A stretch of 64,000 nucleotides of DNA from Blastocatellia bacterium (GCA_046565505.1 JBKHYJ010000042.1:67770-131769); one strand, 5' to 3'; shown: positions 10,579-42,484, counted from the first letter of the stretch. Notes: a model not told the origin generated them from the sequence alone. A program made the numbers and translations.

Positions 10579-11415
10579 TCAATCGGTCGCGGCGTAGTGG
10601 TGAAGGAATGAATAGAACTCTTCTCTCGCGTCAACCATGAGCCAGTGAGAGGCGCCCGGGAATGACTTGCTCTCCAGGCCCATGCGATCCAAGAAGCGGG
10701 CGGTTTCTGGCGAAAGGCTCTCCGTGCCGTAACAGAAGACCTTCGGAATTCTAAGAGAGCAATACGTCCCGCCGATCTCGCTTTGGTATTCCCCTTCGAC
10801 AGATGTGTTCCTGTCATACAGCTCCCTAGCATTAGCCAGAAACGCGTCCTGACGCGCGAAGTGCAGGGACGCATAATACCTCCGGCAAGACTCGTAGCGG
10901 CTGCCCAGCTCGGCGTATACCTTTCGTTCCATGAAGTCGGACTCGAACCACTGCTTGAACTCGCCGCGGCCGGCCGCTTCCACCGCCCGGCCGGAAATAA
11001 AAAGGTCGAATTGCGTTACGTCGCCCTCAACGTTTACGAACTTGCTCACCTTGCCGCGGCGGTCGGAATTACAGAACAGGGTTGCGATGTCTCCGCCCAG
11101 CGAGTGGCCCACGACGATCAGCCTTTCGATTCCTATTCGCTCGCGCGATTCGAGTTTCTCAATCAGACTCCACAGCCTTTCAGTGTGCGCGGCGAAACTA
11201 TAATCCGTCGAAGCGGAGCTTCTGCCATAGCCCGCGAGGTCCGGGACCAGGATATTAAACCGCCCGAGTCTTTTATCCTCGAATGCCTCCTGGAAGGTAT
11301 TTCCCGAATCGCCCAGACCGTGTACGAACAACAGCGTCGGCCTGCCAGCGAGCAGCGGGCTATGTCTTAGAAATAAGTGGTCGTCAAGAATCTTGATGAA
11401 CGATTCGCGCATCAT
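10579..11415 (-). CDS. alpha/beta-hydrolase fold protein (cluster-flanking; possible esterase or editing thioesterase)
   Basis: Oxyanion-region HGLGDSG and nucleophile elbow GHSLGG. 278 aa. Confidence 0.75.
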   Translation of the reverse strand: MMRESFIKILDDHLFLRHSPLLAGRPTLLFVHGLGDSGNTFQEAFEDKRLGRFNILVPDLAGYGRSSASTDYSFAAHTERLWSLIEKLESRERIGIERLIVVGHSLGGDIATLFCNSDRRGKVSKFVNVEGDVTQFDLFISGRAVEAAGRGEFKQWFESDFMERKVYAELGSRYESCRRYYASLHFARQDAFLANARELYDRNTSVEGEYQSEIGGTYCSLRIPKVFCYGTESLSPETARFLDRMGLESKSFPGASHWLMVDAREEFYSFLHHYAATD

Positions 11416-11560
11416 TATATTTTACCGTAGGCGTCGCCGTCGGATCGAACGCATGCGCCGAGTGGGTGTCGGTCCCATGAAATAACGTCGCGCGGTGGGC
11501 CGGCGGCGTGCGAGATTTTATTGTTCGCCCGGGCGGCGCCCCGCCGGAGGTATATCAAAC

Positions 11561-12595
11561 ATGTTAATTAGTCATGAAGGCGATGAAGGCGTTGACACAC
11601 CTTCGCGAGCGGGGGTCAGGATCGGCAACCTCGGGGCGGGCGGGGCCATTCCGCTGGCGTTAGAGCCGGAAACCGACGACGCCGACCTGGTGTCCTGGGC
11701 GAGGAGTAATGCACAGTTCATAGAATCGCTTCTGCTACGGCATGGCGCCCTGCTTTTCCGCAATTTCAATATTGACTCACTGTCCGTTTTCAAAGAATTC
11801 GCGGAGTCCACGTCGGCGGCGCTGATGCCATACAGCGAGCCCTCGACGCCGCGCACGGAATTGACCGCCGATGTCTACACGACGACAGAATACCCCGCGA
11901 CGGAGAATATTTCGCTCCACAACGAGATGTCATACTCCCACGTCTGGCCGATGAAGATATGGTTTCATTGTATCAAGCCCGCCGACGCGGGCGGGGAGAC
12001 CTCCATCGGCGACAGCCGGAAAGTCTTTCAACTGCTCAGCCCCGGCATAAGGGAGGCGTTCGCACGCAGAAACGTCATGTACGTACGCAACTATGGCTAT
12101 GGGATGGGGCTCCCGTGGCAGACCGTCTTCCGCACGGCGAGCAAAGAGGTGGTCGAAAGGCATTGTAGCGAGAATGGCATCCGGTGCGAGTGGACCGGCG
12201 GCGGCCGTCTGAGAACGTACCAGGTCCGTCAGGCCGTCGCGAAGCACCCGAAGACCGGAGAGGATGTCTGGTTCAACCAGGCGCACATCCACAACATCAA
12301 GAATTTCTCCCCCTCACTGCGCGAGGCGTTGCTCTCCCTCGTCGAGTCCAAGGATTACCCACTCGACATTAACTGTGTCTACGGGGACGGGGGGGACATA
12401 GAGGCCCCCGTGCTCGAAGAGATTCGCAATGCCTACGAGCGAGTCACTACGACCTTCCCGTGGCAGAGGGGTGACATATTGATGCTCGACAACATGCTCG
12501 TGTCGCATGGGCGGACCGCGTTCTCCGGCCGCCGGAAGATAGCCGTGGCTTTGGGGGAACCCTTCGCCGCGGGCGGCCTTCAACATCAGCCCTGA
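11561..12595 (+). CDS. TauD/TfdA-family Fe(II)/2-oxoglutarate dioxygenase, SyrP-like (putative beta-hydroxylase of an NRPS-bound amino acid)
   Basis: ATG at 11561 with GGAGG upstream. Clavaminate-synthase-like family signature (HNE facial triad region, C-terminal H..R...G). These are frequently trans-acting amino-acid beta-hydroxylases in NRPS clusters. Confidence 0.7.
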   Translation: MLISHEGDEGVDTPSRAGVRIGNLGAGGAIPLALEPETDDADLVSWARSNAQFIESLLLRHGALLFRNFNIDSLSVFKEFAESTSAALMPYSEPSTPRTELTADVYTTTEYPATENISLHNEMSYSHVWPMKIWFHCIKPADAGGETSIGDSRKVFQLLSPGIREAFARRNVMYVRNYGYGMGLPWQTVFRTASKEVVERHCSENGIRCEWTGGGRLRTYQVRQAVAKHPKTGEDVWFNQAHIHNIKNFSPSLREALLSLVESKDYPLDINCVYGDGGDIEAPVLEEIRNAYERVTTTFPWQRGDILMLDNMLVSHGRTAFSGRRKIAVALGEPFAAGGLQHQP

Positions 12596-13740
12596 GCGTC
12601 GGCGTAGTGTAACATCGCCTCGAACGGCGTCATGTTGAAAGACGTTACAAGCCTGGTGATCTTAGACAGGAGGTGCCCTTCGACTTCCCGCACCGTAAGG
12701 TGAGCCAGCTCCTTGTCGAAGGACACGTGGGACCTGGATTTCCTCCAGAACCATTCGAGCCTCGAAGTCAGCGCGCCGCCGAGCGTCAGGACCTGGCCCG
12801 GCACGGAGTAGACGTTCCTGGCCGCGATGCCTTTCATGACGCTGAGGCCCTTGCTCCCCAGGGGCACCGACAGGTTATGCGCCAGGACCAGGACGCTCCC
12901 GGGCGGGATCGCCTTCCAGTTTGAATTCTCTAGCTCCTCCCCGTATGTCGTCGCGATGATCATGCCGCCCCGCTTCAAGCATTCTTCTGTCAGAGCGCCC
13001 ATCTTTGAAGTCAGCTTCTGGACGCCGGGCGGGGGCGCCGAAGTCCCGTCGTCGTACACCAGGTCGCACACGGCGAGGTCCGCGAACCCTCTCGCCGACA
13101 GGTATTTCAATACGTCGCTGCCCAGTGCGCCCGCCGAGCCTATGAGCGTTACAGGCTTGTCCTGGTAGTCGGAAATGCCGAGCATCTCCAGGGCGGTTAT
13201 GATGCCCGTGGCCGCGTAGGAAGATTTCCCGCCGCACCCGCCGGCCTCGCAGCGTATGCCCAGCACGTGAGTCGTGAACCTGGCGAGGATGTCGGCCATG
13301 CCCGCGTACCGGCCGAAATCGGGCGTCAGCTTAACCATGCCGCCATGTTCGTTGAGCAGCCCCCCGAGCCTTTCAAAGATGCCGGAGATGGTCGCGTCGA
13401 AATCGGGGTTGGCCGGGTTCTGGAGGGTCGCGTATATCTTCTCGTCTCTCGGCCTGAGTATACACCGGGCGCCGCCGACCTTGCTCCCCAGGAAGCCCTC
13501 GGGCATCCTGCCGTTATAGGCGGCGAACGTCTCTTGCGTAAGAACTTTATTGATGAGCCTGTTTTTGAACTCGCTCTCTTCGCTCATCAGCCTTGAGACG
13601 ATGCGGACGACGTCCGGCTCGGCCGTGGCCGGCGGGACCATCCGCGTCCCCCCATAGTAATAGTCGAAGCCTTCCTTCTCATCAAAAGCGATCCAGGCGT
13701 CGGCATTAGGGTGCGACACGTTCAGAATCTTAATGCTCAT
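12586..13740 (-). CDS. Glu/Leu/Phe/Val-dehydrogenase-family amino-acid dehydrogenase
   Basis: N-terminal GGTRM and GSKVGG motifs, then a Rossmann region (VTLIGSAGALGSDV...LAVCD). The 3' end overlaps the convergent TauD gene by 10 bp. Confidence 0.6.
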   Translation of the reverse strand: MSIKILNVSHPNADAWIAFDEKEGFDYYYGGTRMVPPATAEPDVVRIVSRLMSEESEFKNRLINKVLTQETFAAYNGRMPEGFLGSKVGGARCILRPRDEKIYATLQNPANPDFDATISGIFERLGGLLNEHGGMVKLTPDFGRYAGMADILARFTTHVLGIRCEAGGCGGKSSYAATGIITALEMLGISDYQDKPVTLIGSAGALGSDVLKYLSARGFADLAVCDLVYDDGTSAPPPGVQKLTSKMGALTEECLKRGGMIIATTYGEELENSNWKAIPPGSVLVLAHNLSVPLGSKGLSVMKGIAARNVYSVPGQVLTLGGALTSRLEWFWRKSRSHVSFDKELAHLTVREVEGHLLSKITRLVTSFNMTPFEAMLHYADAQG

Positions 13741-13957
13741 AAGTTATCTCCTTTGAGTTAACGGACCGTATAGAATCATTTCGCACAGCGGTCCCCGGCC
13801 GCGTGAGGCCCGGCCCGGCGGGCCGCCTGCTCAATTTGCGCAGTCGTTTTCGTGAAGAAAATATGACGAATCTTTCAGTCGATTTGAGGTCCGCCCGGCT
13901 CTCGACCCGGCAGGTCAATCGCCGCGCGGCGGGTGGGGCCTCGCCCCCGCGCGTGAA

Positions 13958-14806
13958 TTAGCCGGGCTTCTCGCCCGCCGCCATTAACAGTATCCTCATA
14001 TAGAAAGGGTCATCCGACGCCATGAACTTCTCTATGGCGGCGCGGTAATCCTCCGCTTCGTCCCGGGACAGCACGCCCGCCTCGACCAGCGGCATAATGC
14101 GGTCGGGGCTGATCTGCGGGTAAAACCATTCCATGCCCATCTCGCCGCTGTGCGCGGCGACGGCCTCAAGGTCTAATTTCTTGAACCCCGCCGAATCGAG
14201 CACGCGCCATAGGCGCCGCCCGGCCAGCGCGGACCTCCCCCGCGATGATTGATACCGCAGAAGCTTTTCCATGAGGGGCCGGGACTCGGCCAGGTGCGGG
14301 TCCGTGATGTGATTAAGAGAAAAATCGGTCTCGGAGATCACCAGTTTTCCGCCGGGCTTGAGCACGCGCAGAATCTCCCTGGCCGCGCCGCGCATGTCCT
14401 CCAGGTGGACGAAGATTAAACGCGCGAAAGCGAAATCGAAAGTGTCATCCGGGATGCCCATGCCCATCACGGACCCATTCAGAATGCGATACGGGCACCG
14501 CGCCTTGCCTTCCAGATACCGCTCCGCGTGCCGGATCAAAACGGGGTCTATCTCGACGCCGGTGATGGAGCCATTGGGGACCATTTCGGAAAGCCATTCC
14601 GTCACGAACCCGGGGCCGCTCGCGACTTCCAGGACGGACATCCCATCCGTCAACCCGAACCGGCTCAGGACGCGCTTCTCTTTCGCCTTGCTGCCATTGG
14701 CCTGGTTGTATAGACGGCGTAGCTCGTCTTCCAGGGAAACGTTTGCGGTTGTCGCGTCGTACAGCCTTGCCTTTTCCATGCGCGTCCTTTCGGCGAGCGG
14801 GGCCAA
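13958..14806 (-). CDS. class I SAM-dependent methyltransferase (paralogue 1)
   Basis: Motif I LEVASGPGFVTEWL, post-I acidic residue, motif II/III. Clear paralogue of the 24082-24900 gene. Confidence 0.85.
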   Translation of the reverse strand: MAPLAERTRMEKARLYDATTANVSLEDELRRLYNQANGSKAKEKRVLSRFGLTDGMSVLEVASGPGFVTEWLSEMVPNGSITGVEIDPVLIRHAERYLEGKARCPYRILNGSVMGMGIPDDTFDFAFARLIFVHLEDMRGAAREILRVLKPGGKLVISETDFSLNHITDPHLAESRPLMEKLLRYQSSRGRSALAGRRLWRVLDSAGFKKLDLEAVAAHSGEMGMEWFYPQISPDRIMPLVEAGVLSRDEAEDYRAAIEKFMASDDPFYMRILLMAAGEKPG

Positions 14807-14827: not shown

Positions 14828-17800
14828 TCAGATCAGATCATGCAGCTCCGGCCCCGGCAGGTCGTTTGCGTTCTTGATGACGCCGAGTTGTATTTGAAGG
14901 CGCTCGGCAAGCGCGCTGCAATGCGGCGGCCGGAGTATCGTAAAGTGATTGCCGCCGATTGTCTCCTCATGGACCGTACCCCTGGTGTATTTGCCCCAGT
15001 CCGTGCGAGGCAGACCGGCCCGCGCCTTCTCGCCGGCCCACCACACATGCAGGCTCGTTTGAATCACCGGCGCGTTGTGCGCCCGCAGCAACCTGTCATG
15101 TATTTCGGCCAGGGCGACCTGTTGGCGGATGACTTCCGCTGACAGGTCGGCGGGGAGCAAGTTGCGCCGCTGCCCCCAGCCGATGACCCTCTCTATTCGC
15201 TCTTCGGGCGACAGCGGCAGGAGTTCATCGCGAAAGGCTTGCTGAGCCCGCGCGTCGAGGGCGTTGAAGGCGTCCGTGAGCGCGCCGCCGAACGTGAGGC
15301 TGATCCCGAGCAACGGGTCGCTATCAAAAGTGAAAGGGTCGTCCTCGAACAGGTAAGAGTCTACGAGCCCGACGAAGGCCACGTCCTCGTTCTGTCGTTC
15401 CAGCTCGCGGGCGACGCTGACGGCGATCACCCCGCCCATCGACCAGCCGAGCAGATAATATGGGCCGTGGGGCTGCTGCTCTCGGATGACGCCGGCGTAA
15501 TCTGCGGCCATCTGCTCAAGGCTCTCGTGCTCACGCTCAAGGCCCGACAGCCCGCGCGACTGTAACCCGAAGACTGCCTGCCCGGGGTCATGCGAATCCG
15601 CCAGATGCTGGTACAACATCACCTGCCCGCCCGCGCCATGTATGCAGAATAATGGCGGCCACGTCCCGCCGGACCGGATGGGCACGAGGACCGAAAAGGC
15701 CGCCCCGGCGTCTTTCCCCGCTATGAGCGCCGCAAGCTCGGCCACCGTCGGGGCGCGAAACAGCGACGTTAGAAGCAGCTCCGCGCCGAGCCTCTGCCGA
15801 ACTTTCAACAGTAGCTGGATCGCTAGAAGCGAATGGCCCCCGAGCTTGAAGAAGTTGTCGTGTATGCCCACCCGGTCCAGGCCGAGCGTGTCCGCCCAGA
15901 TTCCCGCAAGCTCTTCTTCGACCGCGTCGCGAGGTGCGGCGTAGGATTGTCTCAGCTCCGGCCTGCTCTGGTCCGGCGGCGGGAGGGCGCGTTTATCGAC
16001 TTTCTTGTTCGGCGTGAGGGGCATCGCGTCGAGCGTCACGAACGCCGAAGGGATCATGTAATCGGGCAGCATCTCTTCGAGGTGATCGCGCAGCTCACTA
16101 ACGTCGATGGGCCGCTCGCCCGGCACCACGTAAGCGACCAGCCGCTTGTCGCCGGGCGAGTCTTCCCGCGCGATTGCTACCGCCTCGCGGACGGAGGGGT
16201 GCCGGCTCAGCGCGGACTCGATCTCCCCGAGCTCAATCCTGAACCCGCGTATTTTCACCTGGTGGTCTACGCGGCCGATGAACTCTATATTCCCATCCGG
16301 CATGTGACGCGTAAGGTCGCCGGTCTTATACATGCGGGCGCCTTGTTCGGGGCTGAACGGGTCCGGGATATACTTTTCGGCCGTCGCGTCGGGGCGCCCC
16401 AGGTACCCCCTGGCGGGGCTCGCGCCGCCGATGTATAACTCGCCGGTCACGCCCACGGGAACGACGTTGAGGCGTCTGTCCAGAATGTAAAGCCGTATGT
16501 TCGCGATCTGCCGCCCGATGGTGGGCCTTGCGGGCGGTATCCGTATCAGGAAGTATGTCGTATCGTCAGTGCATTCGGTCGGGCCATAGAGGTTGTAAAA
16601 ATCCGTCCAGTCGTTGCGGGCCAGGTGGTTCCAGGAAGCTTCGTCCAGGGCCTCGCCGGCGACGAAGACCACCTCCGGGGAAGTCTCCGCGGTCCCGGAT
16701 AGACCCGCCGCGAGCAACAGCTTCATCATTGAGGGCGTGACATCCAAAACGTCCAGCCCATGACGGGCTATGAAAGAAATTATCTCATCCGAATCGAGCC
16801 TCACCTCCTCGGGCAGTATGTACAGCGCGTGCCCGTAGGCCAGTTGCATCAACTGCTTTACGGAGGCGTCGAACGCGAGCGGCGCGTTCATGCTGACTTT
16901 CAGAGGGGCGCGCCTCCCCGCGTATATAGCTTCATGGAAGGCCGCCGCCAGGTTTACGAGCGAGCGGTGCTGCACCATGACCCCTTTGGGCCTGCCCGTA
17001 GACCCGGAGGTGTAGATCACATAAACGAGGTTCTCGGCCGAGGCCGCGTTGGCGGGGTTGTGCGAGCTTTGCCGCGAGATTTCTTGCCGGTCGGCGTCGA
17101 GGCAGATGGCCTTCGTCCTCTCTAATGGCAAGTCCGCCAGCAGCTTTTGCTGCGTCAGAATCGCCAGCGCGCGCGAATCTTCTATCATCAACGACAAGCG
17201 CTCCTTCGGGTAATCAGGGTCGAACGGCACGTACGCCCCTCCCGCCTTCAGGATGCCTAGAAGCGTCACCATCATGTCCACGGAGCGCTCCATGTAGATC
17301 CCGACGAGCGTCTCCGGCCCCACCCCGCGCGCCCTGAGGTAATGGGCCAACTGGTTAGCCCTGTCATTCAACTCGCGGTAGGTCAACCGCTGTCGCCGGA
17401 AGACGACCGCCGCCGCGTCAGGGGTCCGCTCGACCTGGTCCTCAAACAATTGATGGAAGCATACGTCGCGCGCGACCGGCAGCTCTATGCTGTTCCACTC
17501 CACCAGTATCTGGCGGCGTTCGGCTTCCCCGAGCAGCGGCAGGGCTGAAATACGCCGGGCGGGGTCCGCCGCCAAGCCCTCCAGCAGCGTTCGCAAGTGG
17601 CCCGCCATTCGGTCGATGGTGGCTTCGTCTAATATGTCGGCGTTATACAAGAAGAGCAGGCTCAGGCCGCCATCGGGGGACTCTTCTTTCGCCGTCTCCC
17701 AAACAGAGAGGCTCAGGTCGAACCGCGTAATCTCCCAATCTAGGTCGAGCACGTCAAGGGTGAGGTCGCCCATCCTGAGCGTAGGCAGCGGGATGTTCTG

Positions 17801-19834: not shown

Positions 19835-19994
19835 TCAAAAACCGGATGATTCTATGAAAGATACTGGGGCAAACGAACCTGGGCAAGCCATAATTATTAC
19901 CACCGTCCGCGGCGCCGGAATGACGCGCGGCCGCGCAGGACGAGGGTGCGCCTCCCGCAGTCGGAAGCGCCCCCGCAGGCGGCCCGGCGTGTGG

Positions 19995-20963: not shown

Positions 20964-21268
20964 AACTGCATTCCTCCTTTCTAATCCTCGGCTGTAATCA
21001 CTGAATTCCGTGAGTAAGTCCCGGGCAGCGGTGTGCCGCCGCGTCACGCGAGCATGCGGGCGCCCACTGCTCAAGATTGTTGGCCTGTTAGGTGGTTCGG
21101 ACGGATGGTCCCGGCTTTACTGTGACCGAAGAAAGCGGTCCGGCATTCAGGCGGCTCGGTCAAGCCGCCCGAAGCATCATGGCATGGACATGTAAGCTGG
21201 TTTCTCTACGCGGTTGTGGCGGCAAAGCAATCTTCGCCGCCCTGTTACTTTCACGGGGGCGCCGACCC

Positions 21269-35700: not shown

Positions 35701-38700
35701 CAGTTGGACGGAGGTGTGGAAGGCTTCGAGCAGCGACAAGTTCCTAACGTCGCCCAGGAAAATATGCCCGCCTTTCGCGACCGCCCTCACGGCCTGTTCG
35801 AGTACGCGCATGAGGTAATCGACGCTCGGGAAGTACTGCGCAACCGAAACGATCAGCACCGCGTCGAACTCGCCCTCCTCCACGCCCTGGAAATTATCCC
35901 CGCCCCTGAGCTTGAAGCTCACCTGCGGCAGGTCGACGCCCATGATCTTTAACTGCTCCTGAATCAGTTCGAGCGAGCGCACCGCCTGATCCGTCGCGTA
36001 ATACTTCTCGCAAGAGGGCGCGACGCGCAGCAGCATAAGCCCGCTGCCCCCCGAGCCGATCTCATACACGCGCGAAGGGCGCAGCGACAGGATTCGCTCG
36101 ACCGTCTGGTCCATCCACTCGCGCACCTCTTCGCCGGGGATGGGCGCATCGGAGTAGCTGCTGGTCCAGCCCTTGATGTAGAACCCGAGTTCTTCGCCCG
36201 GGTCCATGTCCCTGTAGAGGTCGTTGAAAATCTCGCGCCAGTCGGCGGCCTGCCTGCTTTGCAGGTCATCGCCCGCCGCGCGCTCGTCGAATTCCACGTG
36301 CTCCCTGTCCGGGACCACGAACCCGACGAGCCGCTTATTGCCCGCGCCATATTCCTGCGCGAGGATCACGGCGTCCCGCACGGCGCGGTGCTGCCTCAGC
36401 ACAGTTTCGATCTCCTCAAGCTCGACGCGGAACCCGCGTATTTTCACCTGCTGATCGACCCGGCCGAGGAATTCAAGGTTGGCGTCCGGGAGGTAGCGGG
36501 CGAGGTCGCCGGTTCGGTACATCCTTTCGCCGGGCTTGAGCGCGAAGGGGTTAGGTAAGAACCTGTCGGCGGTCGTGTCGGGCCGCCCGTGATAGCCTCG
36601 GGCCAGGAGGGCGCCGCCCAGGTAGACCTCGCCCTGCACGCCGACCGGGGCGGGCTGTAGGTTCGTATCCAGTATATAAATCTTGGCGTCGGGTATGGCG
36701 GACCCTATCGGTAGCTCGCGCGTCACGCCCTCCCTCACGGGGAACTCCGATATGTCGCACATAGAGACGGAGATCGTCGCTTCGGTCGGGCCATAAGTGT
36801 GCATGAGCCGGGTCCGGCCTGCCGCATGCTTCTGCCAGGCGGCGAGCCTCTCCGGGAACGCCCTTTCCCCCGCTATGACGACCATCCTCAGCGAGGGCGG
36901 CAGCGACAGATTCTCTTCTTCCAGCGTGGCCGTGATTTGATGCCAGTATGCGGTCGGCAGGCTCATCACGGATATCCCCCACTCCCTGCACCTCTCCAGG
37001 AAGACGGTTACGGAGTCGAGCATAGAATCGGTCCGCAGCACGAGCGCCGCCCCGCGGGTGAGACACGGGTATATCTCTTCCCCGCTTATGTCGAAACTGA
37101 TCGAGCAGAATTGAAGCGCGCGGTCACCGGGCTTCACCCCGTAGTTGACCGCGCAAGTTTCCGCGTAGCTCACAAGCGAGCGGTGCTGGACCATCACGCC
37201 TTTCGGGGACCCCGTGGAGCCCGACGTGTAAATGACGTAGACGAGATTTTCTCCCGCGACGGTGTTGACAGGGTTCTCTTCGCTCTCGCCCGCGACCGCT
37301 TCCCATCCGGAATCCAAACAGATCACGCGCACGTCCCCGGCCGGAATGGTCTTGAGCAATCGCCGTTGCGTCAGCAGCACGGGCACGCGGGCGTCGTCCA
37401 ACATCAGTGCGAGGCGCTCCGGCGGGTAGTCTTTGTCTAACGGCACGTAGGCGCCCCCGGCTTTGATGATCCCGAGCATACCCACCATCATTTCCAGAGA
37501 GCGTTCCATGCACAGGCCGACAAGAACGTCTGGCCCCACCCCCATAGACCGTAAGCGATGAGCCACCTGATTGGCGCGGCTGTTCAACTGACGGTAAGTG
37601 AGTTCTTCTTTCTCGAAGGCCAGGGCGATGGCTTCGGGCGACCGCTCGACCTGCCGCTCGAATAGCAGGTGTATGCAAGGAGATTGAATATACTGCCGGT
37701 CGGTATCGTTCCAGGCGAAGAGGATCTGTTGGCGTTCAGACCTCGACAGGAGGTCTAAATCCGAGATGCGCGCGGCGGGGTCGGCCACTATACTCTCCAG
37801 GAGTCTTTGGAAATGGCCCACCATCCTGCCGACCGTGCCGGATTCAAACAGGTCCGTGTTGTACTCGAAGGAGGCGGCCAGCCCCTCGTCCACCTCGGCT
37901 ATGCTCAGGGACAAATCGAACTGAGCTATCTGCTGGTGCAGGCCCGTAGATTCCAGTAGCAAATCTCCCAGCCGCATCTGCACCCCGGCCTCCCCCAGCG
38001 CGAACGTAGCCAGCCTTTGCACGTCCGGCAGGGGCGACTTTTGCCATACGAACATCACCTGAAAAATAGGCGAGCGGCTGAGGTCGCGCACGGGTTGCAG
38101 TCGCTCGACAAGTAGCTGGAACTGGAAATCCTGGTGCTCGAAGGCTTCCAGTGCGGTCCGGCGCACCTGGTCCAGAAACTCGTCGAATCTAACGGAGGCC
38201 GACGCCTGCGCCCGCATCACGACGGGGTTGACGAAATAGCCTACGACCCCGCGCAAGTCGGCCCTGCCGCGGCCGGCCGTCGGCGAGCCCACGAGGATGT
38301 CCTCCTGAGCGGTGTAGCGGTAAAGCAGCGCCTGGAACGTCGCCAGCAACGTCATGTAGGGCGTCGCTGAGCGCGCGGCGGCGAGGGACTTCAGGCCCCG
38401 GGTGAGGTCGCGTTCCAGCTTGAAGAATATCGACGCACCGTTGTAAGTCTGGACGGGCGGCCTGACTTTATCCGTGGGGAGATTCATCACGGGGAGGTCG
38501 CCGGCAAGCTTTTCCTGCCAGTACTGCCACAGCCGGTCGCCGGCGGGACCGGACAGCATCTCTATTTGCTGCCTGACGTACTCCACATACTCTAATTCGA
38601 TGGGCGGGAGCGCCGCCTCCTCGCCGGCCGTCTTAGCCTGGTACAGTATCCCTAGCTCACGCATCATCACGGCCAGGGACCAGAGGTCGGCTATGATGTG

Positions 38701-41181
38701 GTGCATGGTCATTAGCAGAACGTGATCCTGCGCCGACCGCGTGAAAAGGGTGACGCGCAGCAGCGCGCCCCGTTCGAGGTTGAACGGGCGCTGAGCGTCC
38801 TCGATCACCCGCCTGTTCAGAAATTCGTCGTCCCACCGCGAAGCGTCCTCTAACTGGAAACACACCTCTGCGCGATCATGAATCAATTGTATGGGACTAC
38901 CCCCGGGGGCGGTGAAATTCGTGCGCAAGGAGGGGTGACGGTCGATGAGCGATTGAAATGCCCGGCGCAACGCGTCCGAATCTACGCGCGACCTGATGCG
39001 GACGGCGCCCATAATATTGTAGGCCGCGCTGTGCGGGGCCAGTTTATGCAGGAACCAGAGAGCGCGCTGTCCGTGGGAGAGAGGGTGTTCAGATTCGGCG
39101 TCACGTTCGGGGGCGGCGAGAGCCGGCGAGGGTCCGGGCGCGGCCGCCAAGCGGGAAAAAACCTGCGCGGCGATTTGAGCGACGGACAAGTTTTCGAGGA
39201 AATTCGCCATCGGGAGGTTCACGCCCAGACTGGTCTCTATGCCGTACGCTAGCTCGACTGCCACGAGGGAATCTAAACAGAATTGGGCTATGGGCCGGCT
39301 CGGGTCTATGCCGGAGGGCTCTACTCCCAGCATCATCGCCAGTCGCGATATAAGACCGGATTCGATCTCTTCGGTAGTTTGCGGAGGTGAGGCGAGCGCC
39401 TGCGGCTCGCTTCGAGGTATCAGGTTTAAATTGGACTGCGCGACCGCTTCGAGGCTCCCGGCCATATACCTTGCGCGGCAGGCTTGGCGTTGAATCTTGC
39501 CGCTGGAAGTCTTCGGTATGCTTCCCGGCTCAAGCAGGACGACCGCGTACGTTTGGATTTCATGTTCTTCCGCCACGGCCCTGCGGACGGCCTCTATAAC
39601 CGCGTCTGCGTCGAGGGGCGGCCGATTACTTACTTCCTGAGCCAGCACGAGGCGCTCTTCGCCGCCCACTTCGACTGAGAACGCGGCGCCGCAGCCGGGC
39701 CTCAGGGCCGGGTGACTCCTCTCGGCCGTCAACTCGATGTCCTGTGGGTAATGGTTACGCCCCCTTATGATAATCAGGTCTTTGAGTCTGCCGGTGACGA
39801 ACAACTCTCCGCCCTGTAGGAAGCCGAGGTCGCCTGTACGCATGTAAGGGCCATCGCCCGTGTCGGAGACGTACGCTTCAAACGTGTCCCGCGTCTCATC
39901 CGGGCGGCCCCAGTAGCCGCGGGCCATACTCGGCCCCCTCAGCCATATCTCCCCTATCTGATCTGTCGCACACTGAGTCAGAGATTCAGTGTTTACGATC
40001 ACCGCGTCGAGACCAATCGCGAGCCTGCCGCAGCCGGTCAGACTGCGCGAATCCAGCCCGCGCGCGGTGGCTTCGACCAGCCGGTTTTCTTTAAGGGCGG
40101 ATTCGTCAAAGGCGCTGATGACTGGGGGCGATTGTTTCGGCCCGCCCGCCACGAATAAAGTGGCCTCGGCCAAGCCGTAGCAGGGGCAGAAAGCCTCTCT
40201 GCGAAAGCCGCATGGCTCGAATGCGGCCGAGAACCGCTCTATCGTTTCAGGGCGGACTGGCTCCGAGCCATTGAAAGCCACCGTCCAACTGGAGAGGTCA
40301 AGGTCGGCTCGCTGTTCGTCACTGATCTTGCGAACACAGAGGTCGTAGGCGAAGTTCGGCCCCCCGCTCGTCGCGGCTTTATAACGCGACACGGCCTGTA
40401 GCCAGCGCAGGGGCTTTTGTAAGAACGCTTCCGGCGATAAGAGGATCGACCTTGAGCCTATGTACAATGGCTGGAGCACGTTGCCTATCAGCCCCATGTC
40501 GTGGAAGAGCGGCAGCCACCCGACGAAGGTCGATTCTTCGGTGTGGTCGAACGAGGCCCGGATCATACGTTCGTTATGTAACACGTTGCCATGAGTGACC
40601 ATCACGCCCTTCGGGGCGGCTGTCGAGCCGGACGTATACTGAAGGAAGGCTAACGTTTCAGAATCAACTTCAGGCTCGTGCCATTCGTCAGCAAGGCCGC
40701 GGGCCATTGCGTCCGTGGCAACCCTTCGCACGGACCGGATGTCCTGATCCAGGCCCGGCAGGCTCTCGATCATAGAAAGGATGGGAGATACGGTCAGGAC
40801 GACGAAAGGTCCCGCGTCATTTACGATGGCTCTGAATCTGGGCAGGCTCCGGCTCAGGCGGGCGGGGTCGGGTGAGTATGTAGGCACGGCAGTAACACCC
40901 GCGTACAGGCAGCCGAAAAAGGCGGCTATGAAATCTAACCCCGAGGGGTAAAGTAGCAGGGCGCGTTCCCCAGTCGCGTTCAAGGACTGGAGGTATGCGC
41001 CTATGGCTCGCGCCCGCCGGTCTAATTCTTCGTAGGTGAGGCTGGCCTCCTTGGTTTCCCCATCCGAAAGGAAGCTGTAGGCTAGTCGATCAGGCTGGTT
41101 CAGTGCCCTCCATCTCAGAAGCTCGATCAGGGAGGAGAATCCCGCATGGCTGCTAGAACCAGCTACTCTCTTGCTTTTCAT
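26740..41181 (-). CDS. non-ribosomal peptide synthetase, 4813 aa: FAAL-ACP-C-A(N-MT)-T-C-A-T-C-C*-A-T plus C-terminal docking region
   Basis: All core motifs read from the translation. FAAL (YTSGSTAAPKGVMVTHGN, extended insertion) with fused ACP (FCLDSLV). C1 MHHIIADLWS. A1 (SGSTGSPKG ... GRVDQQVKIRGFRVE) carrying an inserted SAM-MT domain (VYEIGSGGSG) before NGKVDRRAL. T1 GGHSL. C2 LHHIVSDGWS. A2. T2 GGNSL. C3 IHHIVSDDWS. C* with SHMIADLWS. A3. T3 GGQSIL. ATG with GGGGGA RBS. Confidence 0.97.
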   Translation of the reverse strand: MKSKRVAGSSSHAGFSSLIELLRWRALNQPDRLAYSFLSDGETKEASLTYEELDRRARAIGAYLQSLNATGERALLLYPSGLDFIAAFFGCLYAGVTAVPTYSPDPARLSRSLPRFRAIVNDAGPFVVLTVSPILSMIESLPGLDQDIRSVRRVATDAMARGLADEWHEPEVDSETLAFLQYTSGSTAAPKGVMVTHGNVLHNERMIRASFDHTEESTFVGWLPLFHDMGLIGNVLQPLYIGSRSILLSPEAFLQKPLRWLQAVSRYKAATSGGPNFAYDLCVRKISDEQRADLDLSSWTVAFNGSEPVRPETIERFSAAFEPCGFRREAFCPCYGLAEATLFVAGGPKQSPPVISAFDESALKENRLVEATARGLDSRSLTGCGRLAIGLDAVIVNTESLTQCATDQIGEIWLRGPSMARGYWGRPDETRDTFEAYVSDTGDGPYMRTGDLGFLQGGELFVTGRLKDLIIIRGRNHYPQDIELTAERSHPALRPGCGAAFSVEVGGEERLVLAQEVSNRPPLDADAVIEAVRRAVAEEHEIQTYAVVLLEPGSIPKTSSGKIQRQACRARYMAGSLEAVAQSNLNLIPRSEPQALASPPQTTEEIESGLISRLAMMLGVEPSGIDPSRPIAQFCLDSLVAVELAYGIETSLGVNLPMANFLENLSVAQIAAQVFSRLAAAPGPSPALAAPERDAESEHPLSHGQRALWFLHKLAPHSAAYNIMGAVRIRSRVDSDALRRAFQSLIDRHPSLRTNFTAPGGSPIQLIHDRAEVCFQLEDASRWDDEFLNRRVIEDAQRPFNLERGALLRVTLFTRSAQDHVLLMTMHHIIADLWSLAVMMRELGILYQAKTAGEEAALPPIELEYVEYVRQQIEMLSGPAGDRLWQYWQEKLAGDLPVMNLPTDKVRPPVQTYNGASIFFKLERDLTRGLKSLAAARSATPYMTLLATFQALLYRYTAQEDILVGSPTAGRGRADLRGVVGYFVNPVVMRAQASASVRFDEFLDQVRRTALEAFEHQDFQFQLLVERLQPVRDLSRSPIFQVMFVWQKSPLPDVQRLATFALGEAGVQMRLGDLLLESTGLHQQIAQFDLSLSIAEVDEGLAASFEYNTDLFESGTVGRMVGHFQRLLESIVADPAARISDLDLLSRSERQQILFAWNDTDRQYIQSPCIHLLFERQVERSPEAIALAFEKEELTYRQLNSRANQVAHRLRSMGVGPDVLVGLCMERSLEMMVGMLGIIKAGGAYVPLDKDYPPERLALMLDDARVPVLLTQRRLLKTIPAGDVRVICLDSGWEAVAGESEENPVNTVAGENLVYVIYTSGSTGSPKGVMVQHRSLVSYAETCAVNYGVKPGDRALQFCSISFDISGEEIYPCLTRGAALVLRTDSMLDSVTVFLERCREWGISVMSLPTAYWHQITATLEEENLSLPPSLRMVVIAGERAFPERLAAWQKHAAGRTRLMHTYGPTEATISVSMCDISEFPVREGVTRELPIGSAIPDAKIYILDTNLQPAPVGVQGEVYLGGALLARGYHGRPDTTADRFLPNPFALKPGERMYRTGDLARYLPDANLEFLGRVDQQVKIRGFRVELEEIETVLRQHRAVRDAVILAQEYGAGNKRLVGFVVPDREHVEFDERAAGDDLQSRQAADWREIFNDLYRDMDPGEELGFYIKGWTSSYSDAPIPGEEVREWMDQTVERILSLRPSRVYEIGSGGSGLMLLRVAPSCEKYYATDQAVRSLELIQEQLKIMGVDLPQVSFKLRGGDNFQGVEEGEFDAVLIVSVAQYFPSVDYLMRVLEQAVRAVAKGGHIFLGDVRNLSLLEAFHTSVQLHKSPPGLSKAELLQQVQTQLLKEKQLVIDPEFFIALKRHLPQISHVEILLMRGRNRNELSKFRYDVILHVGGERRAARHVDWLDWETEGLTAAGVRRLLRESRPDLLAIKGVPNARVMADVKLVQMLKQANGPATAAELMAEYAGAGEEGIDPEDIWAIGDEEPYSVSIGWSESRADGRYEIVFQRRAAGQGEAAIRAAAPLVKETISPRPWGKYATAPLQGVHIEKLVPILRSYLEEKLPEYMVPSSLVLLDALPLSPNGKVDRRALHAPDWTKPASAGIFAAPRTPVEEALAEIWMEVLGLDRVSIYDDFSEMGGHSLLAMQLLSRVHNAFGVELSVRALFESPTVAGLAQVVERALRSAAAPAAPQLSPASRDGQLPLSFAQQRLWFLSQLEPGRRADNMPGAIRIKGRLDISALEQSLNELVWRHESLRTTFISAEGRPRQVISPELKLPLPVISLTDLPAGSREAGALKLAEEEAAHVFDLAAGPLLRAKLLRVGEDDHLLILCLHHIVSDGWSLGVFAREMGVLYDAFSAGRPSPLPGLPIQYADFAVWQRGWLQGELLESQLSYWRQKLSGDLPVLELPTDRPHAQASDFQGSRQSFALSEDLTRSLKALSRQEGVTMFMTLLCAFKVLLHRYTRQEDIIVGTPIAGRNRAELEGLIGFFVNTLVLRTDLSGRPSFTQTLARERGVCLDAYAHQDLPFEMLVDELQPERQLSRNPIFQAMFEMQMEPTPEPSLAGLKTSFVEVERKATKFDLTMALSEEQPDVISGWIEYKTELFDAPTIGRMAGHFQRLLEAAASAPATPISALPMLSEAELHHLLVAYNDTRRDFREDLCVHQFFEEQVERTPDNIAIMFEGQRLTFRDLNARANRLAHYLRKLGVGPETPVGMCMERSPEMFVGLLGILKSGGAYVPIDPSYPKDRVAFMLEDVGAATLLTQERLIHALPEHGDAAVCVDSDWDLISRESDGNPASNVAGDNLAYVLYTSGSTGRPKGVAIEHRQLVNYMIGAAERLGLAAMSSFALVSTPAADLGNTVIFPSLCNGGCLHVISEDRASDADAMSSYFRENSIDCLKVVPSHLASLRSFSNGEQVLPRKMLVLGGEASQRNWVEQLRGLNPGLTVINHYGPTETTVGVLTYHADPRRMADHLATVPLGYPLPNAQVYLLDGDAQPVPAGVPAEIHIGGAGLARGYFKRPNLTAEKFIPNPFGGPPGERLYKTGDLARHLPDGAIEFLGRVDDQVKVRGFRIEPSEIESVLRGHDALRNAVVLAAQDEASDRRLVAYVVAEQGRDVSADDLRAFLKARLPEYMVPSRFLFLDAIPLTPNGKVDRRSLPAPDQHEAASEAVSPGITNPVEEIVANVWAKVLGLERVGVHENFFEAGGNSLLATQAVSRLRAAFQMELPLRKLFESPTVSALAEFIKSERANGTGLQAPPIEKSRSRAAIPLSYSQWRLWFLDRLVPNNPVYNVSVALRLSGPLDVRAFGRSINEVVRRHDILRTTFSADKGQPVQVVAPSLEVDFPVVDLSHLDEPAREEAVLRMAAEEARRPFDLTRGPLLRTALARLGEHEHVLILAIHHIVSDDWSVGIFNGEISALYRAFSEGLASPLPALPIQYADFAVWQRRWLDGPVLGAELEHWKRRLGDDIPTLDLPTDRPRPAVQAFRGATLTFEFPDSLSRAVRELSLQQGSTLFMTLLAAYAAVLHRCSGQEKIIVGLPVANRNHMETEGLIGFFTNILVPPIDLSGDPTYKELINRVREATLDAFDHQDMPFEKMVEAFQQKRDLSRPPLRQVAFAFENSSPQLLDLPGVTVSRIPFEDHTSRLDLTVFVREEQGKLRGALEYNSDLFEASTARRFLEFFEAVLEDVAHHPERRILTLPPLVERRPGQTGPALPQAEKDGQGVIADATDAIYEQSNMAQNQLLFWFSKKLQPDVQLYFDNVLGTFAIEGAIDVAHFRAAFQKVIDNSDVLRSTVVESNGAPRRIEHQNIHFEIDYVDLSGGEDPRAECGEALRRLCAEPLDLGERLFDSALFKLSQDRFVWFLSLSHMIADLWSVAVILRSVSEYYHLSLEGRIGEARPLPPYAAYIEYEREFRRSPQYGQAELYWRKKLATAPNLFQFYKRDSSAKTTRTRRVSINLGAERSRRVKQVAGREGLFSPAVVFAATLFAYQHRVSGERRLRIGSPFANRPDAFRQTPGLFINVCPLEVSVSGGDNFDSLARRVQVEMLESSRNQMYPVRNSRDNRVYNVYFNYQSASLTELCGLHVEFDLVHSGHSNDTLTLQVSDFKGSGDFVLDFDFNCGAFGEGQSADAARHFLAILDSATEDWSRPVRGLRMLSEEEQHQVLVEFNQTKRDYPRGVCLHEMVEAQAERTPLADAVIFDDRRLSYAELNRRANQMAHFLRRRGVGPDVPVGVCAERSLEMVVGLLGILKAGGAYVPLDPAYPKERLTFMLDDARPPVLLTQGGLAGRLPEHMGKTVRLDSDWDVISRESEANLVNEASGESLAYVIYTSGSTGKPKGVMIPHRGICNRLLWMQEAYQMTGDDRVLQKTPFSFDVSVWEFFWPLITGACVVMALPEGHQDRQYLIEEIARQKITTIHFVPSMLQLFLAGDGLEACYRLKRVVCSGEALPYELQQRFFDLMSAELHNLYGPTEASVDVTYWECGGRSEAGLVPIGRPVANTNIYILDGYLGPAPVGIPGVLHIGGEGLARGYLKRPDLTAEKFIPNPFSEEPGARLYDTGDLARYLPDGNIEFLGRIDHQVKIRGFRIELGEIEEAIRRNASVREAVVVDREDRPGDKRLVAYVVAEAGETLSADQLRGSLKERLPDFMIPSAFVALEQMPLTPNGKIDRKALPAPDQSQLRSQTPFASPRSPLEELLAGVWADVLGVERVGVHDDFFEMGGQSILATQLISKIQQALPIELPLRTIFESPTVARLAAAIEQGQQNLDEAEMNLMAEVLSEMQELTGDDVEAFAEESPGEKLGAD
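27112..28659 (-). other. A domain 3, hand-derived code D-V-W-H-V-S-L-V-D-K (close to Ser code DVWHLSLIDK)
   Basis: FDVSVW...TTIHFVPS...VVCSGE...NLYGPTEASVD. Manual derivation. Confidence 0.5.
28702..31368 (-). other. tandem condensation-family domains (canonical C3 followed directly by divergent C* with SHxxxD) preceding A3
   Basis: C3 has C1/C3/C5/C6/C7 motifs (LSYSQWRLWFL, HHIVSDDWS, IGFFTNILV, HQDMPFE, RDLSRPPL). The next ~425 aa form a second C-like domain (LLFWFSKKLQP, LSLSHMIADLWS) that lacks the HQD and RDxSRNPL motifs. No A or T domain lies between them. Confidence 0.75.
31687..33204 (-). other. A domain 2, hand-derived specificity code D-L-T-K-V-G-H-V-G-K (near-identical to Asp code DLTKVGHIGK)
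   Basis: Positions 235/236/239/278 from AADLGNT...CLK, 299/301 from VLGGE, 322 from NHYGPTE, 330/331 from TTVG. Manual alignment to GrsA numbering, so tentative. Confidence 0.5.
35182..36264 (-). other. N-methyltransferase domain inserted between A8 and A10 motifs of A domain 1
   Basis: VYEIGSGGSG (checked at nt 36040-36069) resembles the NRPS N-MT motif VLEIGTGSG. Flanked by GRVDQQVKIRGFRVE (A8) and NGKVDRRAL (A10). Confidence 0.8.
39142..41181 (-). other. FAAL (fatty acyl-AMP ligase) starter domain with fused ACP
   Basis: N-terminal FAAL-type adenylation region (aa 1-~585) followed by a DSL carrier motif at aa ~637. Implies N-acylation, i.e. a lipopeptide. Confidence 0.85.
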
Positions 41182-42484
41182 TTATTCCCCCAAGATTACC
41201 GACATAAAGACCGCGCGTTGCCCGCCGCGTCGCGCACGGGCTTAACCGGCCTGGCCGCCGCCGGGGCTTCGCGCGTGCGGCGCGGCGTCTGATGATTGCG
41301 CCGGGGCCGAACTCTAGAGCATTGTTGATGTCGGGTAAAATACTCCGGCAGGTCGGCGGAAGGTGCCCTGCTTCAGGAATTGGTTCTGGCCGCGCCCGGG
41401 GCGAACTAATCCGCATGAAGTGTTAGCCCTTTAAGGGAAGCTGCTTCGCAGCGTAAGAATTGCCAGGGCTGGTAGGGAACGAGAGGCTAAGGCGATAAGC
41501 GTACAGATCACTTACGACGGTTAGGGACTGTCACCCTCTGTGTCGGGACCTGATAATGGTATTGCCAGATGAGGAGCGTTCTCTCGGAATCGAATGAGCC
41601 AGCAATTTAATGTCTCTGTTCGTCACTAGCACTTCTGCCCCCGTGCCCTACTCGCAAAGAGGTCCAGACCGGGCACTATGACCCAAGCCCACATTCATCA
41701 TGTAATCTTTGTAAACCTGAAGCCGGGGAGCCCGCTTCGCGGGAAGGATGGGCGAGCAAGCTCCATAGCGTTGAAGATTCGACATCTTACATATGCTCCT
41801 TAGTCGTGGGTTGTGTTGGAGGACAATTCGGACTACAGCCCCGGGCTTGCATCAGTTTTGTCCTAATTCTTAAACCTGAAAGAGGTATGTAAATTCCCAC
41901 GGCTTGCTGCGGTTCCTCTTCGTACAGTGAGATTCAATATAAGAGCGTGTTCCGCAAGCCTGCGCCGCACCGATTGGCGCGGAGAGCTTTATCCCGCGAT
42001 ACACTGGTGACAGAGCGTATCTCTTAATAATGACTATGCTTGCCGTTGGGGCGTATTAAATTTCTAAACTGTTCGTATTTTTCAAAGAGGCCATTCAGAC
42101 CTACCGCTCAAAAAGAAATAATGCGCAGGCCAGCCTGCGATCTTCGAGAGAGCACGGACATGAGCGGCCAAATTTAAACTCGGCGTTTTGAGATAAGAAT
42201 CACATCTTGCTAAAGCCTCACCCATTTTAGCGATGGATATTACTTTGTCAAGAAAAATCGTACCCGCGCGCCGCCACGCGCCGGGCCATTAACTCATGGC
42301 CCGACGCGTAGTCCTGAGGTCGCTTCTTATGTTTGCCTTAAGATATGGGCGAAAGGTGGGCGTAAGTAGTGGGAATTACCTGGCACTCGCTTGCTGCCTT
42401 ACGGTCCTGCATGGTGGCGCGCGGTGCATTCACGCGCCTCTCCCTTCCGCCTTGCTCTCCCGCTCACAGTTATCTCTTGCCTTA

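Follow-up and report, generated by a model that had tools for sequence, protein, structure and literature searches.

The subject of this study is a nonribosomal peptide synthetase (NRPS) gene cluster at positions 10579-42484 of a 64,000-nucleotide stretch of DNA (the whole stretch analysed, hereafter the window) from a metagenome-assembled genome (MAG) of an uncultured, soil-type Blastocatellia bacterium (Acidobacteriota). [quoted passage not shown] Taken as a whole, the cluster is an ordinary member of a very large class, and two of its parts stand out. The first is a module with two condensation (C) domains in tandem, the second of which (C4) belongs to a separate clade that we denote C'. 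The second is a pair of adjacent genes encoding a membrane enzyme that resembles the arginine hydroxylase GntB and a free-standing B3/4-domain protein that resembles CtdA. We propose that C-C' may be a common NRPS module that acylates both nucleophiles of carrier-bound Ser, 2,4-diaminobutyrate (Dab), Orn or Lys, or starts a second chain, and that the gene pair may be a portable unit that makes a hydroxylated basic amino acid and protects translation from it. Neither is described in the literature searched. That both statements hold together we regard as possible rather than likely.

Acidobacteria are abundant in soil, yet hardly any of their natural products have been characterised. The first-pass annotation, made from the window's sequence alone, had proposed a FAAL-initiated NRPS cluster spread over two same-strand synthetase genes about 7.7 kb apart, with a combination of parts not recognised from characterised clusters. 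Intact open reading frames (ORFs) and their domains bear out the first part. Regarding the second, literature searches found no characterised near-identical cluster or product, and no characterised lipopeptide from Blastocatellia or other Acidobacteria that matches the cluster.

A tandem condensation module

The two synthetase genes, NRPS-A (26740-41181; 14,442 bp, 4813 aa) and NRPS-B (14828-18991; 4,164 bp, 1387 aa), are intact ORFs on the minus strand, and 7,748 bp lie between them. Pfam, a core-motif scan and an NCBIfam segment scan give NRPS-A the order FAAL-ACP-C1-A1(MT)-T1-C2-A2-T2-C3-C4-A3-T3, where ACP is an acyl carrier protein, A an adenylation domain, T a thiolation domain and MT a methyltransferase insert. 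Pfam gives NRPS-B the order C5-A4-T4-TE, with a thioesterase (TE) carrying the motif GWSMG. The tandem C domains reported by the first-pass annotation are real and lie in module 3.

C3 (30037-31368, minus strand; aa 3272-3715; motif HHIVSDDWS) is an ordinary elongation-type domain. Its identity is 47% with C2 and 44% with the NRPS-B C domain, and in the NCBIfam segment scan it aligns to an elongation C domain of the PRK05691 model. An epimerisation domain was considered for this position and rejected on the C-type motifs, the 44-47% identity to C2 and C5, and the GGNSLL motif of T2. C4 (28642-29973, minus strand; aa 3737-4180) follows directly and is divergent: C1, C2, C3 and C5 are mutually 34-50% identical, and C4 shares only 23-27% with any of them. 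Its motif, SHMIADLWS, keeps the second His and the Asp. The same motif occurs in L008, an independent copy of the cluster, and a more distant relative, L012, has HH.

The best solved relative of C4 is RzmA-Cs, a lipoinitiating starter C domain (7C1H/7C1K; 100 bits), with C domains of elongation modules listed below it at 66-79 bits. Among NCBIfam models, C4 aligns most strongly with the acyl-accepting first C domain of PRK05691 and with the C domain of MxcG, for which C4 scores 119 bits, C3 89 bits and C1 64 bits. The MxcG C domain takes its donor from an aryl carrier protein.

The distribution of C4-like domains was followed by an exhaustive search over 1.84 billion representatives and then by domain-level BLAST, C4 being too divergent for a word index. 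About 50 representatives at the 50% clustering level, with 29-50% identity to C4, form a clade of their own, and the next-best matches beyond it are N-terminal starter-type domains at about 24%. In 39 of the approximately 50 cases, the domain lies directly after another C domain. Most of the others are N-terminal in their proteins, as a split between C and C' would allow. FAAL-C-A-(C-A)n-C-C'-A is a recurrent architecture within the clade. No member was found among PLSDB plasmids, where tblastn of C4 gave only matches of at most 29% identity, including on the megaplasmid of Mycetohabitans rhizoxinica, the source organism of RzmA.

The A domains that follow C' show a strong bias. Codes of the Ser/Dab/Orn/Lys-like type occur in 32 of 40 of them, compared with 75 of the 522 remaining A domains of those proteins. 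Since 80% of C' domains precede A domains of this type, a branching or second-priming role for C-C' is suggested. In L012 (908-9891), C-C'-A-T is a protein of its own, and its A domain is of the Dab type (DIWEITADDK) rather than Ser.

One published precedent exists for this arrangement, so that the view of the tandem C domains as unprecedented does not stand. Module 3 of the icosalide synthetase IcoA from Burkholderia gladioli consists of an LCL domain, an embedded chain-initiating C domain, an A domain for Ser and a peptidyl carrier protein (PCP) (PMC6553374; review PMC10510592). The embedded domain N-acylates Ser-PCP with a 3-hydroxy fatty acid, and ester formation by the LCL domain afterwards attaches the upstream lipodipeptide to the 3-hydroxyl of that acyl group (PMC6553374). 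NRPS-A shares the elongation C followed directly by a second, possibly starter-like C, the Ser-type A and the carrier domain, and a final C-A-T-TE module is likewise present in both systems. The catalytic His of the embedded domain, H164 in the IcoA construct, also has its counterpart in C4. The IcoA mechanism explains why two C domains would be needed in module 3. Given this IcoA-like tandem, the collinear tetrapeptide predicted earlier, which the A-domain codes fit, is probably not the whole product.

The two systems also differ. IcoA consists of one protein whose priming falls to a starter C domain at the N-terminus, whereas NRPS-A is primed by FAAL-ACP, and IcoA has no associated tailoring genes, unlike the present cluster. 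With characterised starter C domains other than that of IcoA, C4 shares only about 24-29% identity, and it falls in a separate clade. The acceptors of the C4 clade (Ser, Dab, Orn, Lys) point to side-chain branching more than to esterification of a 3-hydroxy acid as in IcoA. If the branching reading is true, icosalide would be one special case of a common module. Structure prediction based on collinearity would then mis-predict a sizeable and recognisable clade of C-C' modules.

Several observations weigh against a dual-acylating C-C' module. The first His of HHxxxDG is replaced by Ser in C4, while HH is kept in most members of the clade. The identity of C4 is equal, at about 24-29%, to starter-type and elongation-type C domains. 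Category-wise best BLAST scores do not place the clade cleanly with N-terminal starters, with some C'-like domains counted as "internal". The acceptor bias has a Fisher p of 3e-18 that treats the sequences as independent and ignores their relatedness, and for 8 of the 40 A domains behind C', among them Gly-like ones, the code is not that of a residue with two nucleophiles.

A different role for C4 would leave the product strictly collinear, acyl-(NMe-X1)-Asp-Ser-X4, with C4 as a non-catalytic adaptor of the docking or interface type that recruits the TauD-type oxygenase or a methyltransferase of the cluster to a carrier-bound residue. Interface domains have been proposed to serve stand-alone Asp beta-hydroxylases, and X domains likewise serve P450s in glycopeptide synthetases. 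The loss of the first His fits such a role, as do the stand-alone TauD protein of this cluster and another encoded directly upstream of the C-C'-A-T gene in L012. Interface domains also belong to the condensation superfamily and are annotated by antiSMASH 8 (PMC12230676). They are, however, described as specific to beta-hydroxy-Asp modules, and the Asp module here is a plain C2-A2-T2 with no extra domain. C4 precedes the Ser A domain, and of the A domains that follow members of its clade no more than about 1 in 40 is Asp-like, against the 80% found for Ser/Dab/Orn/Lys-type domains. Moreover, C4 retains the catalytic His and Asp, most clade members have the full HHxxxD, C4 together with A3-T3 is under purifying selection (ratio of nonsynonymous to synonymous substitution rates, dN/dS, 0.18), and the TauD proteins of the window and L012 are barely alike. 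We regard the adaptor role as unlikely.

Chemical modification of the residue by C4 is far less probable still. By this account, C4 would turn Ser into an oxazoline or Dab into a tetrahydropyrimidine by cyclodehydration, or Ser into dehydroalanine by dehydration, as tandem Cy or C(modAA) domains do. Tandem Cy domains are present in VibF, dehydrating C domains occur in AmbE, for example, and the clade acceptors do carry a side-chain nucleophile. Against this, the clade has an HHxxxD-type motif instead of the DxxxxD of Cy domains, and Orn and Lys would form rings of unfavourable size and cannot dehydrate as Ser does. Dehydrating C domains furthermore act on the upstream residue rather than standing before the A domain of their own residue. 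Assignment of C4 itself as a Cy domain was rejected for want of the DxxxxD motif.

A hydroxylase-like enzyme paired with a B3/4 protein

The second unusual feature lies between the synthetase genes on the minus strand. The upstream gene of the pair (19995-21074) encodes a protein of the FA_desaturase fold (membrane di-iron hydroxylase/desaturase; Pfam FA_desaturase, 122 bits), with M38 as its likely start (19995-20963, 322 aa). It has the His boxes HQCLH, HFKHH and HVEHH and two hydrophobic blocks. GntB is the best of four NCBIfam matches (59.7 bits, E 2.9e-16, nearly full length), followed by weaker matches to DesA, DesB and CrtR. GntB acts in guanitoxin biosynthesis as an L-arginine gamma-hydroxylase (NCBIfam NF041365; PMC12371840) and shares with the window protein the fold, the three His boxes and the hydrophobic segments. 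The two are not orthologs, and the cluster lacks a PLP (pyridoxal phosphate)-dependent cyclase of the GntC type. A solved relative of the desaturase-fold protein was not found by sequence.

The downstream gene (19091-19834) encodes the B3/4-domain protein, and the earlier naming of this protein is confirmed by Pfam (B3_4, 52.9 bits). The gene as called begins at a Met downstream of a GTG start. Its only relatives in the PDB are the CtdA structures 9F7E and 9MKL (E 6e-10 for the single sequence, 1e-13 as a family profile), which makes CtdA the specific relative and the window protein a putative aminoacyl-tRNA deacylase paralogous to it. CtdA, which deacylates canavanyl-tRNA(Arg), is also a free-standing B3/4 fold of about 240 aa (PMC10018355, PMC12449066). 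The match between the two is weak in hidden Markov model terms (54 bits), and their pocket residues differ. Equivalents of G116, C166, N170 and R172 of CtdA are kept in the window family, and N105 is replaced by Cys, W171 by His and Q173 by an invariant Asp. Since these pocket residues are invariant within the family yet differ from those of CtdA, a conserved substrate other than canavanine is indicated for it, plausibly a cationic one. The pattern fits a paralogous family with a different substrate rather than CtdA itself. CtdA is linked to canavanine catabolism and edits a plant toxin, whereas the window protein is linked to a GntB-like hydroxylase and would edit an amino acid made by the host.

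The association of the two genes extends well beyond this cluster. A scan with the B3/4 family profile, limited to one genome per species, gave 38 loci, to which two further loci (L009 and L011) were added. In 27 of these 40, a desaturase-fold gene lies directly upstream of the B3/4 gene on the same strand. In one locus without an NRPS, a 57%-identical B3/4 homolog begins 1 bp after the desaturase-fold gene. The paired loci come from Acidobacteriota, Actinomycetota (Acidimicrobiia), Planctomycetota, Myxococcota and Proteobacteria. By tblastn, no homolog of the NRPS proteins of this cluster was detected in those loci, and the paired loci contained no FAAL. All five further partner desaturase-fold proteins that were tested also had GntB as their best NCBIfam match. 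The pair thus looks like a portable two-gene module. The pairs are located at L009:9028-10729, in L013-L048 (matches near position 10001) and at 19091-21074 of the window.

Individual loci add some detail. In a Haliangium MAG (L043:9974-14711), the B3/4 gene is followed by genes for an ornithine/diaminopimelate/arginine decarboxylase, a desaturase-fold protein 40% identical to that of the window, and an EamA exporter. These neighbours hint at basic amino acid metabolism. The closest homolog of the desaturase-fold protein, at 66% identity, is found in Blastocatellia AA13 (L015:5758-10723), where genes for a quinohemoprotein amine dehydrogenase alpha-subunit and a DUF4221-like protein lie between the desaturase-fold and B3/4 genes.

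The enzyme had first been read as a desaturase within a lipopeptide pathway. The fold stands, and a role on the lipid tail is less likely: with GntB as the best curated match and a conserved operon with B3/4 outside any detectable NRPS context, an amino-acid hydroxylase is the more likely function. The competing account, in which the enzyme acts as a desaturase or hydroxylase on the fatty-acyl tail that the FAAL loads, and the B3/4 protein binds a nucleic acid or ligand in an unrelated function and has no part in tRNA editing or self-protection, draws on the strong Pfam match, the weaker DesA, DesB and CrtR matches, the lipid tail of the pathway itself, and the fact that N105, essential in CtdA, is not conserved in the B3/4 family. 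It has difficulty with the 27 adjacent pairs in five phyla that lack detectable NRPS homologs or FAAL. Because the genes are paired in the absence of NRPS and FAAL, their functions appear tied to each other and not to a lipopeptide tail. The GntB match of every partner tested, the decarboxylase and EamA exporter in the Haliangium locus, and the restriction of the B3/4 family to CtdA among solved structures likewise speak for the hydroxylase function. A tail-modifying enzyme beside an unrelated B3/4 protein is, in our estimation, distinctly improbable.

A parallel comes from deacylases of another family. AlaX-family tRNA deacylases serve as markers of clusters for non-canonical amino acid synthesis, the published use being limited to this family (PMC13149037), and the BesG/AlaX clusters follow the same logic, in which an editing deacylase specific for a non-canonical amino acid of the host is encoded beside the enzymes that produce it. 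A member of the B3/4/CtdA family together with a membrane di-iron hydroxylase would extend this idea, and term searches of the text of that paper (PMC13149037) found no mention of CtdA or of a desaturase. To our knowledge of the literature searched, a hydroxylase/deacylase pair has not been described for the B3/4 family. The linkage of the pair, the likeness to GntB and CtdA, and the AlaX-family precedent, taken together, lead us to infer as the simplest reading that a hydroxylated basic amino acid is produced by the hydroxylase and cleared from mischarged tRNA by the B3/4 protein. That amino acid would be a good candidate for X1, the first residue of the peptide.

If this reading is true, genome mining guided by tRNA deacylases extends to the B3/4 family, and the pair may mark biosynthesis of non-canonical basic amino acids in many phyla. 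A true deacylase function would further imply a new editing specificity and, likely, a common bacterial amino-acid antimetabolite. Three points count against the reading. The GntB equivalog cut-off of 380 bits is reached neither by the window protein (59.7 bits) nor by any other of the GntB matches (26-74 bits overall), so that the match indicates family resemblance and not substrate. N105 is essential in Salmonella CtdA (PMC12449066), and with Cys at this position in the family, deacylase activity of the B3/4 protein is not assured. Finally, the visible part of L012 lacks both genes, which makes the pair accessory to the cluster family.

Proposed biosynthetic pathway

These elements can be combined into a mechanistic model in which module 3 is dual-acylating and the accessory genes have the roles outlined below. 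We place even confidence in this model, with as much weight for it as against it. The cluster is taken to be functional and vertically conserved, and its product would be a fatty-acylated, N-methylated peptide built on X1-Asp-Ser-X4. In the part of the model that is read from the sequence, the FAAL adenylates a fatty acid and loads it onto the fused ACP, after which C1 couples the acyl group to X1 on T1, where the methyltransferase insert of A1 would account for N-methylation, and C2 adds Asp.

Module 3 would then act as a dual-acylation module (branching or second-priming), as in the icosalide synthetase. C4 would move a second, non-peptidyl acyl group onto Ser-S-T3, with acyl-CoA or acyl-ACP as donor, the latter possibly held by a free-standing 85-aa carrier protein encoded in the cluster. 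C3 would join the upstream acyl-NMeX1-Asp to the nucleophile that remains. The side-chain oxygen of Ser is favoured as this acceptor, and the alternative would be the 3-hydroxyl of the second acyl group, as in icosalide. Attachment at both the amine and the side chain of one residue is preferred because the acceptors of the C' clade almost always have a second nucleophile. NRPS-B, as again read from the sequence, adds X4, and its TE releases the product.

Outside the assembly line, the GntB-like enzyme would hydroxylate a free basic amino acid of the Arg, Lys or Orn type, whose product may be the X1 substrate, and the CtdA-like B3/4 protein would remove this analogue from mischarged tRNA and protect the producer. 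A dehydrogenase of the ELFV fold, the TauD-type oxygenase and two methyltransferases may make or tailor unusual residues, with X4 and beta-hydroxy-Asp as likely targets. Export would fall to the MFS (major facilitator superfamily) and ADOP permeases. The model has weak points of its own. Its mechanisms are drawn from homology and gene context. In addition, the cluster has no obvious gene for an enzyme that would charge the free-standing carrier protein, and this carrier ORF is not found in the visible part of L012.

Priming and residue selection

The four A domains of the cluster carry the core motifs YTSGSTG, GPTE and PNGK, the four T domains the motif GGxS (with the ACP in addition), and all five C domains the catalytic His. 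In NRPS-A, Pfam marks four AMP-binding, four Condensation and four PP-binding stretches together with the methyltransferase insert. The FAAL domain (39439-41136, minus strand; aa 16-581) matches NCBIfam fatty-acid--AMP ligase models at 448-464 bits, the best being PRK05850 (464 bits) and FadD32 (456 bits); these scores lie below the full-length model cut-offs, the query being one domain of a larger protein. The fused ACP (39148-39378, minus strand; aa 602-678) carries its DSL serine at aa 637-639. Pfam matches for the two domains are AMP-dom_DIP2-like and ACP_SdgA_C. The N-terminal 680 aa of NRPS-A align to positions 9-658 of NF004282/PRK05691 at 625 bits, a model that we take to be of the PvdL type. 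With C1 (motif HHIIADLWS), the arrangement of FAAL, ACP and an acyl-accepting C domain is complete. Other FAAL-primed NRPSs, such as those with a PvdL-type N-terminus or daptomycin-type lipoinitiation, share this order, and the present system differs from them in its peptide, its taxon, the N-methylated first residue and the extra C domain of module 3.

N-methylation in module 1 had been predicted earlier, and A1 (34867-37704, minus strand) does contain an insert of the methyltransferase type, about 430 aa long (aa ~1640-2050; 35032-36264 of the window). Evidence for it comes from the Pfam Methyltransf_11/12 matches at aa 1707-1808, the S-adenosylmethionine (SAM) motif VYEIGSGGSG, and the distance from the A3 motif to the T domain, which is 825 aa in A1 and about 395 aa in A2 and A3. 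The code of A1, DIESVATIS(K), looks cationic, and its position 278 is ambiguous between S and M (DIE(S/M)VATIS). Lys/Orn-type codes such as DAESIGSVCK have Glu at position 239, and because A1 has it too, X1 is probably a basic residue.

The codes of A2 (31702-33174, minus strand; DLTKVGHVGK) and A3 (27112-28602, minus strand; DVWHVSLVDK, identical in L008) uphold the predicted Asp and Ser positions, taking DLTKVGHIGK as the published Asp code and DVWHLSLIDK as that for Ser. T3 (26872-27075, minus strand) follows A3. The A4 code, DAKDFALDDK, is unassigned. It is identical in L008 and in the terminal module of L012, whose protein is 59% identical, and for this reason X4 is a conserved and probably unusual feature of the cluster family. 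Collectively, the codes support acyl-(NMe-X1)-Asp-Ser-X4. Two reservations apply to this assignment: Stachelhaus positions were read by hand rather than by NRPSpredictor or PARAS, on GrsA numbering and with an alignment script as a check, and the codes do not fix the substrates of A1 and A4.

Related copies and selection

A Logan assembly contig (L001), recognised by an exact match to the methyltransferase MT2, carries the same cluster. A second copy, on a contig from JGI metagenome 3300061847 (L008), has the same twelve genes in the same order, with 92-99% protein identity to the window (81% for the small carrier ORF). A frameshift or other disruption of the synthetase genes would have undone the first-pass annotation, and none is present; the synthetases of the independent copy are 4815 aa and 1387 aa long. 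For every gene except the 85-aa carrier ORF, dN/dS between the window and L008 ranges from 0.03 to 0.28; for that ORF it is 0.54 over 80 codons. On the basis of this synteny and the low dN/dS, all cluster genes are real and under purifying selection, and nothing is frameshifted. The cluster of about 31 kb is a complete and conserved target for heterologous expression.

L012 is a more distant relative, at roughly 50-70% identity. It keeps TauD, the separate C-C'-A-T protein, the C-A-T-TE protein (59% identical) and the gene for a 384-aa protein (69% identical), and also the MFS exporter, the two methyltransferases and the ADOP permease.

Other tailoring, carrier and export genes

From NRPS-A towards NRPS-B, the intervening genes encode the 85-aa carrier-like protein, the MFS protein, methyltransferase MT2, the ADOP permease, the FA_desaturase-fold protein and the B3/4 protein. 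To the left of NRPS-B lie MT1, the 384-aa ELFV-fold protein, the plus-strand TauD gene and an alpha/beta hydrolase.

The carrier protein named earlier is present as a free-standing 85-aa ORF with a DSL motif (26301-26558, minus strand; overlapping the MFS start by 8 nt). Its assignment is tentative, as database matches are weak: the AmcB ACP at E 0.006, PCP structures at E 0.06, and none in Pfam. The phosphopantetheine motif DTDLIEGRVIDSLGFIEFI is conserved in L008. An MbtH-like protein was considered and rejected, the ORF having no such motif.

The exporter and the permease reported between the synthetases are both found there by Pfam and NCBIfam. The first is an EntS-like MFS protein (24995-26308, minus strand; Pfam MFS_1 and MFS_3; NCBIfam EntS, 127 bits), and the second a duplicated MacB/FtsX-type ADOP permease (21269-23722, minus strand; TIGR03434, 1017.7 bits against a cut-off of 622.3), which fits Acidobacteriota. 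Both methyltransferases had been placed between the synthetases as well. One of them, the SAM methyltransferase MT2 (24082-24900, minus strand; Pfam Methyltransf_11/25/31), is indeed there. The other, MT1 (13958-14806, minus strand; Pfam Methyltransf_11/25), lies to the left of NRPS-B and is conserved in L008 and L012. The two are paralogues of about 55-57% identity, both retained in L012.

TauD and ELFV genes had been predicted at the left edge, and both are found left of NRPS-B. The first gene in the range given (10579-11415) instead encodes the alpha/beta hydrolase, and the TauD gene occupies 11495-12595. The latter, the sole plus-strand gene of the cluster, encodes a TauD/clavaminate-synthase-type Fe(II)/2-oxoglutarate oxygenase (Pfam TauD, 160 bits) whose best structural matches are 9YUT and At3g21360 (E 1e-32), and it is conserved in L008. 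A stand-alone TauD-family oxygenase beside an NRPS with an Asp module recalls the SyrP-type Asp beta-hydroxylases, and beta-hydroxylation of Asp by this protein is plausible. Its substrate could equally be X1 or X4.

The 384-aa protein (12586-13740, minus strand) has a 100% identical counterpart on a 147-kb contig of a Blastocatellia MAG. It gave no Pfam match, ELFV_dehydrog included, and no NCBIfam match at E <=1e-3. The ELFV dehydrogenase of the first-pass annotation is borne out at the level of the fold: an AlphaFold2 model built on a 32-sequence alignment (pLDDT 92.3) finds Phe, Leu, Trp and Glu dehydrogenases with Foldseek (E 1e-16, TM 0.70-0.76), among them the Phe dehydrogenase 1C1X (E 1e-16, TM 0.70/0.76). 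By this model, the protein has the two-domain ELFV amino-acid dehydrogenase fold, including a Rossmann NAD(P) domain. GGCGGK and GSAGALG are invariant in 32 homologs, and by inspection the former stands at the place of the catalytic Lys motif of the ELFV family. The conserved 384-aa family, for which neither Pfam nor NCBIfam has a model, is represented in cyanobacteria, Chloroflexi, myxobacteria and Acidobacteria at about 50% identity. The Thermosporothrix homolog lies in a polyketide synthase (PKS)/NRPS cluster, between PanD (aspartate decarboxylase) and AsnB (asparagine synthase). As a cluster-specific marker, the family was judged only partly valid, with copies in Moorea and in one metagenomic sequence lying outside PKS/NRPS clusters.

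Cluster boundaries and neighbouring genes

The left-most conserved gene is the alpha/beta hydrolase (10579-11415, minus strand; Pfam Abhydrolase_1/6), which is 92% identical in L008. Beyond it, the window and L008 have different genes, which sets the left boundary at 10579. In the window, the gene at this place encodes a 639-aa protein with He_PIG/Ig-like repeats (8606-10525), just beyond the boundary, and in the otherwise syntenic L008 its place is taken by an unrelated 194-aa ORF, marking the edge of the conserved cluster.

On the right, a non-coding region of 1.3 kb (41182-42484) lies upstream of NRPS-A and is presumed to hold its promoter or regulatory elements and to form the right boundary of the cluster. 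ORFs wholly internal to it are all of at most 87 aa, and a 126-aa plus-strand ORF (42296-42676) overlaps its right end. Four sigma-70-like sites were found against 0.8 expected, which is weak evidence for a promoter, and Rfam gave no match anywhere in the window, this region included. One sigma-70-like site is strong: TTGACA-16-TAAAAT, which occupies 42251-42224 of the minus strand. The G+C content of the region is slightly below that of the cluster, and that of the window is about 57-66%.

ORFs without a Pfam match occur at 2741-4309 (522 aa), 5866-6912 (348 aa) and 42485-43015 (176 aa), the last with a hydrophobic, signal-peptide-like N-terminal stretch. Further upstream on the same strand (43168-49242), in what is probably an unrelated set, genes for a type I phosphodiesterase/nucleotide pyrophosphatase and a PMT_2 (ArnT-like) glycosyltransferase are accompanied by one for a second ADOP-like MacB/FtsX permease of 894 aa.

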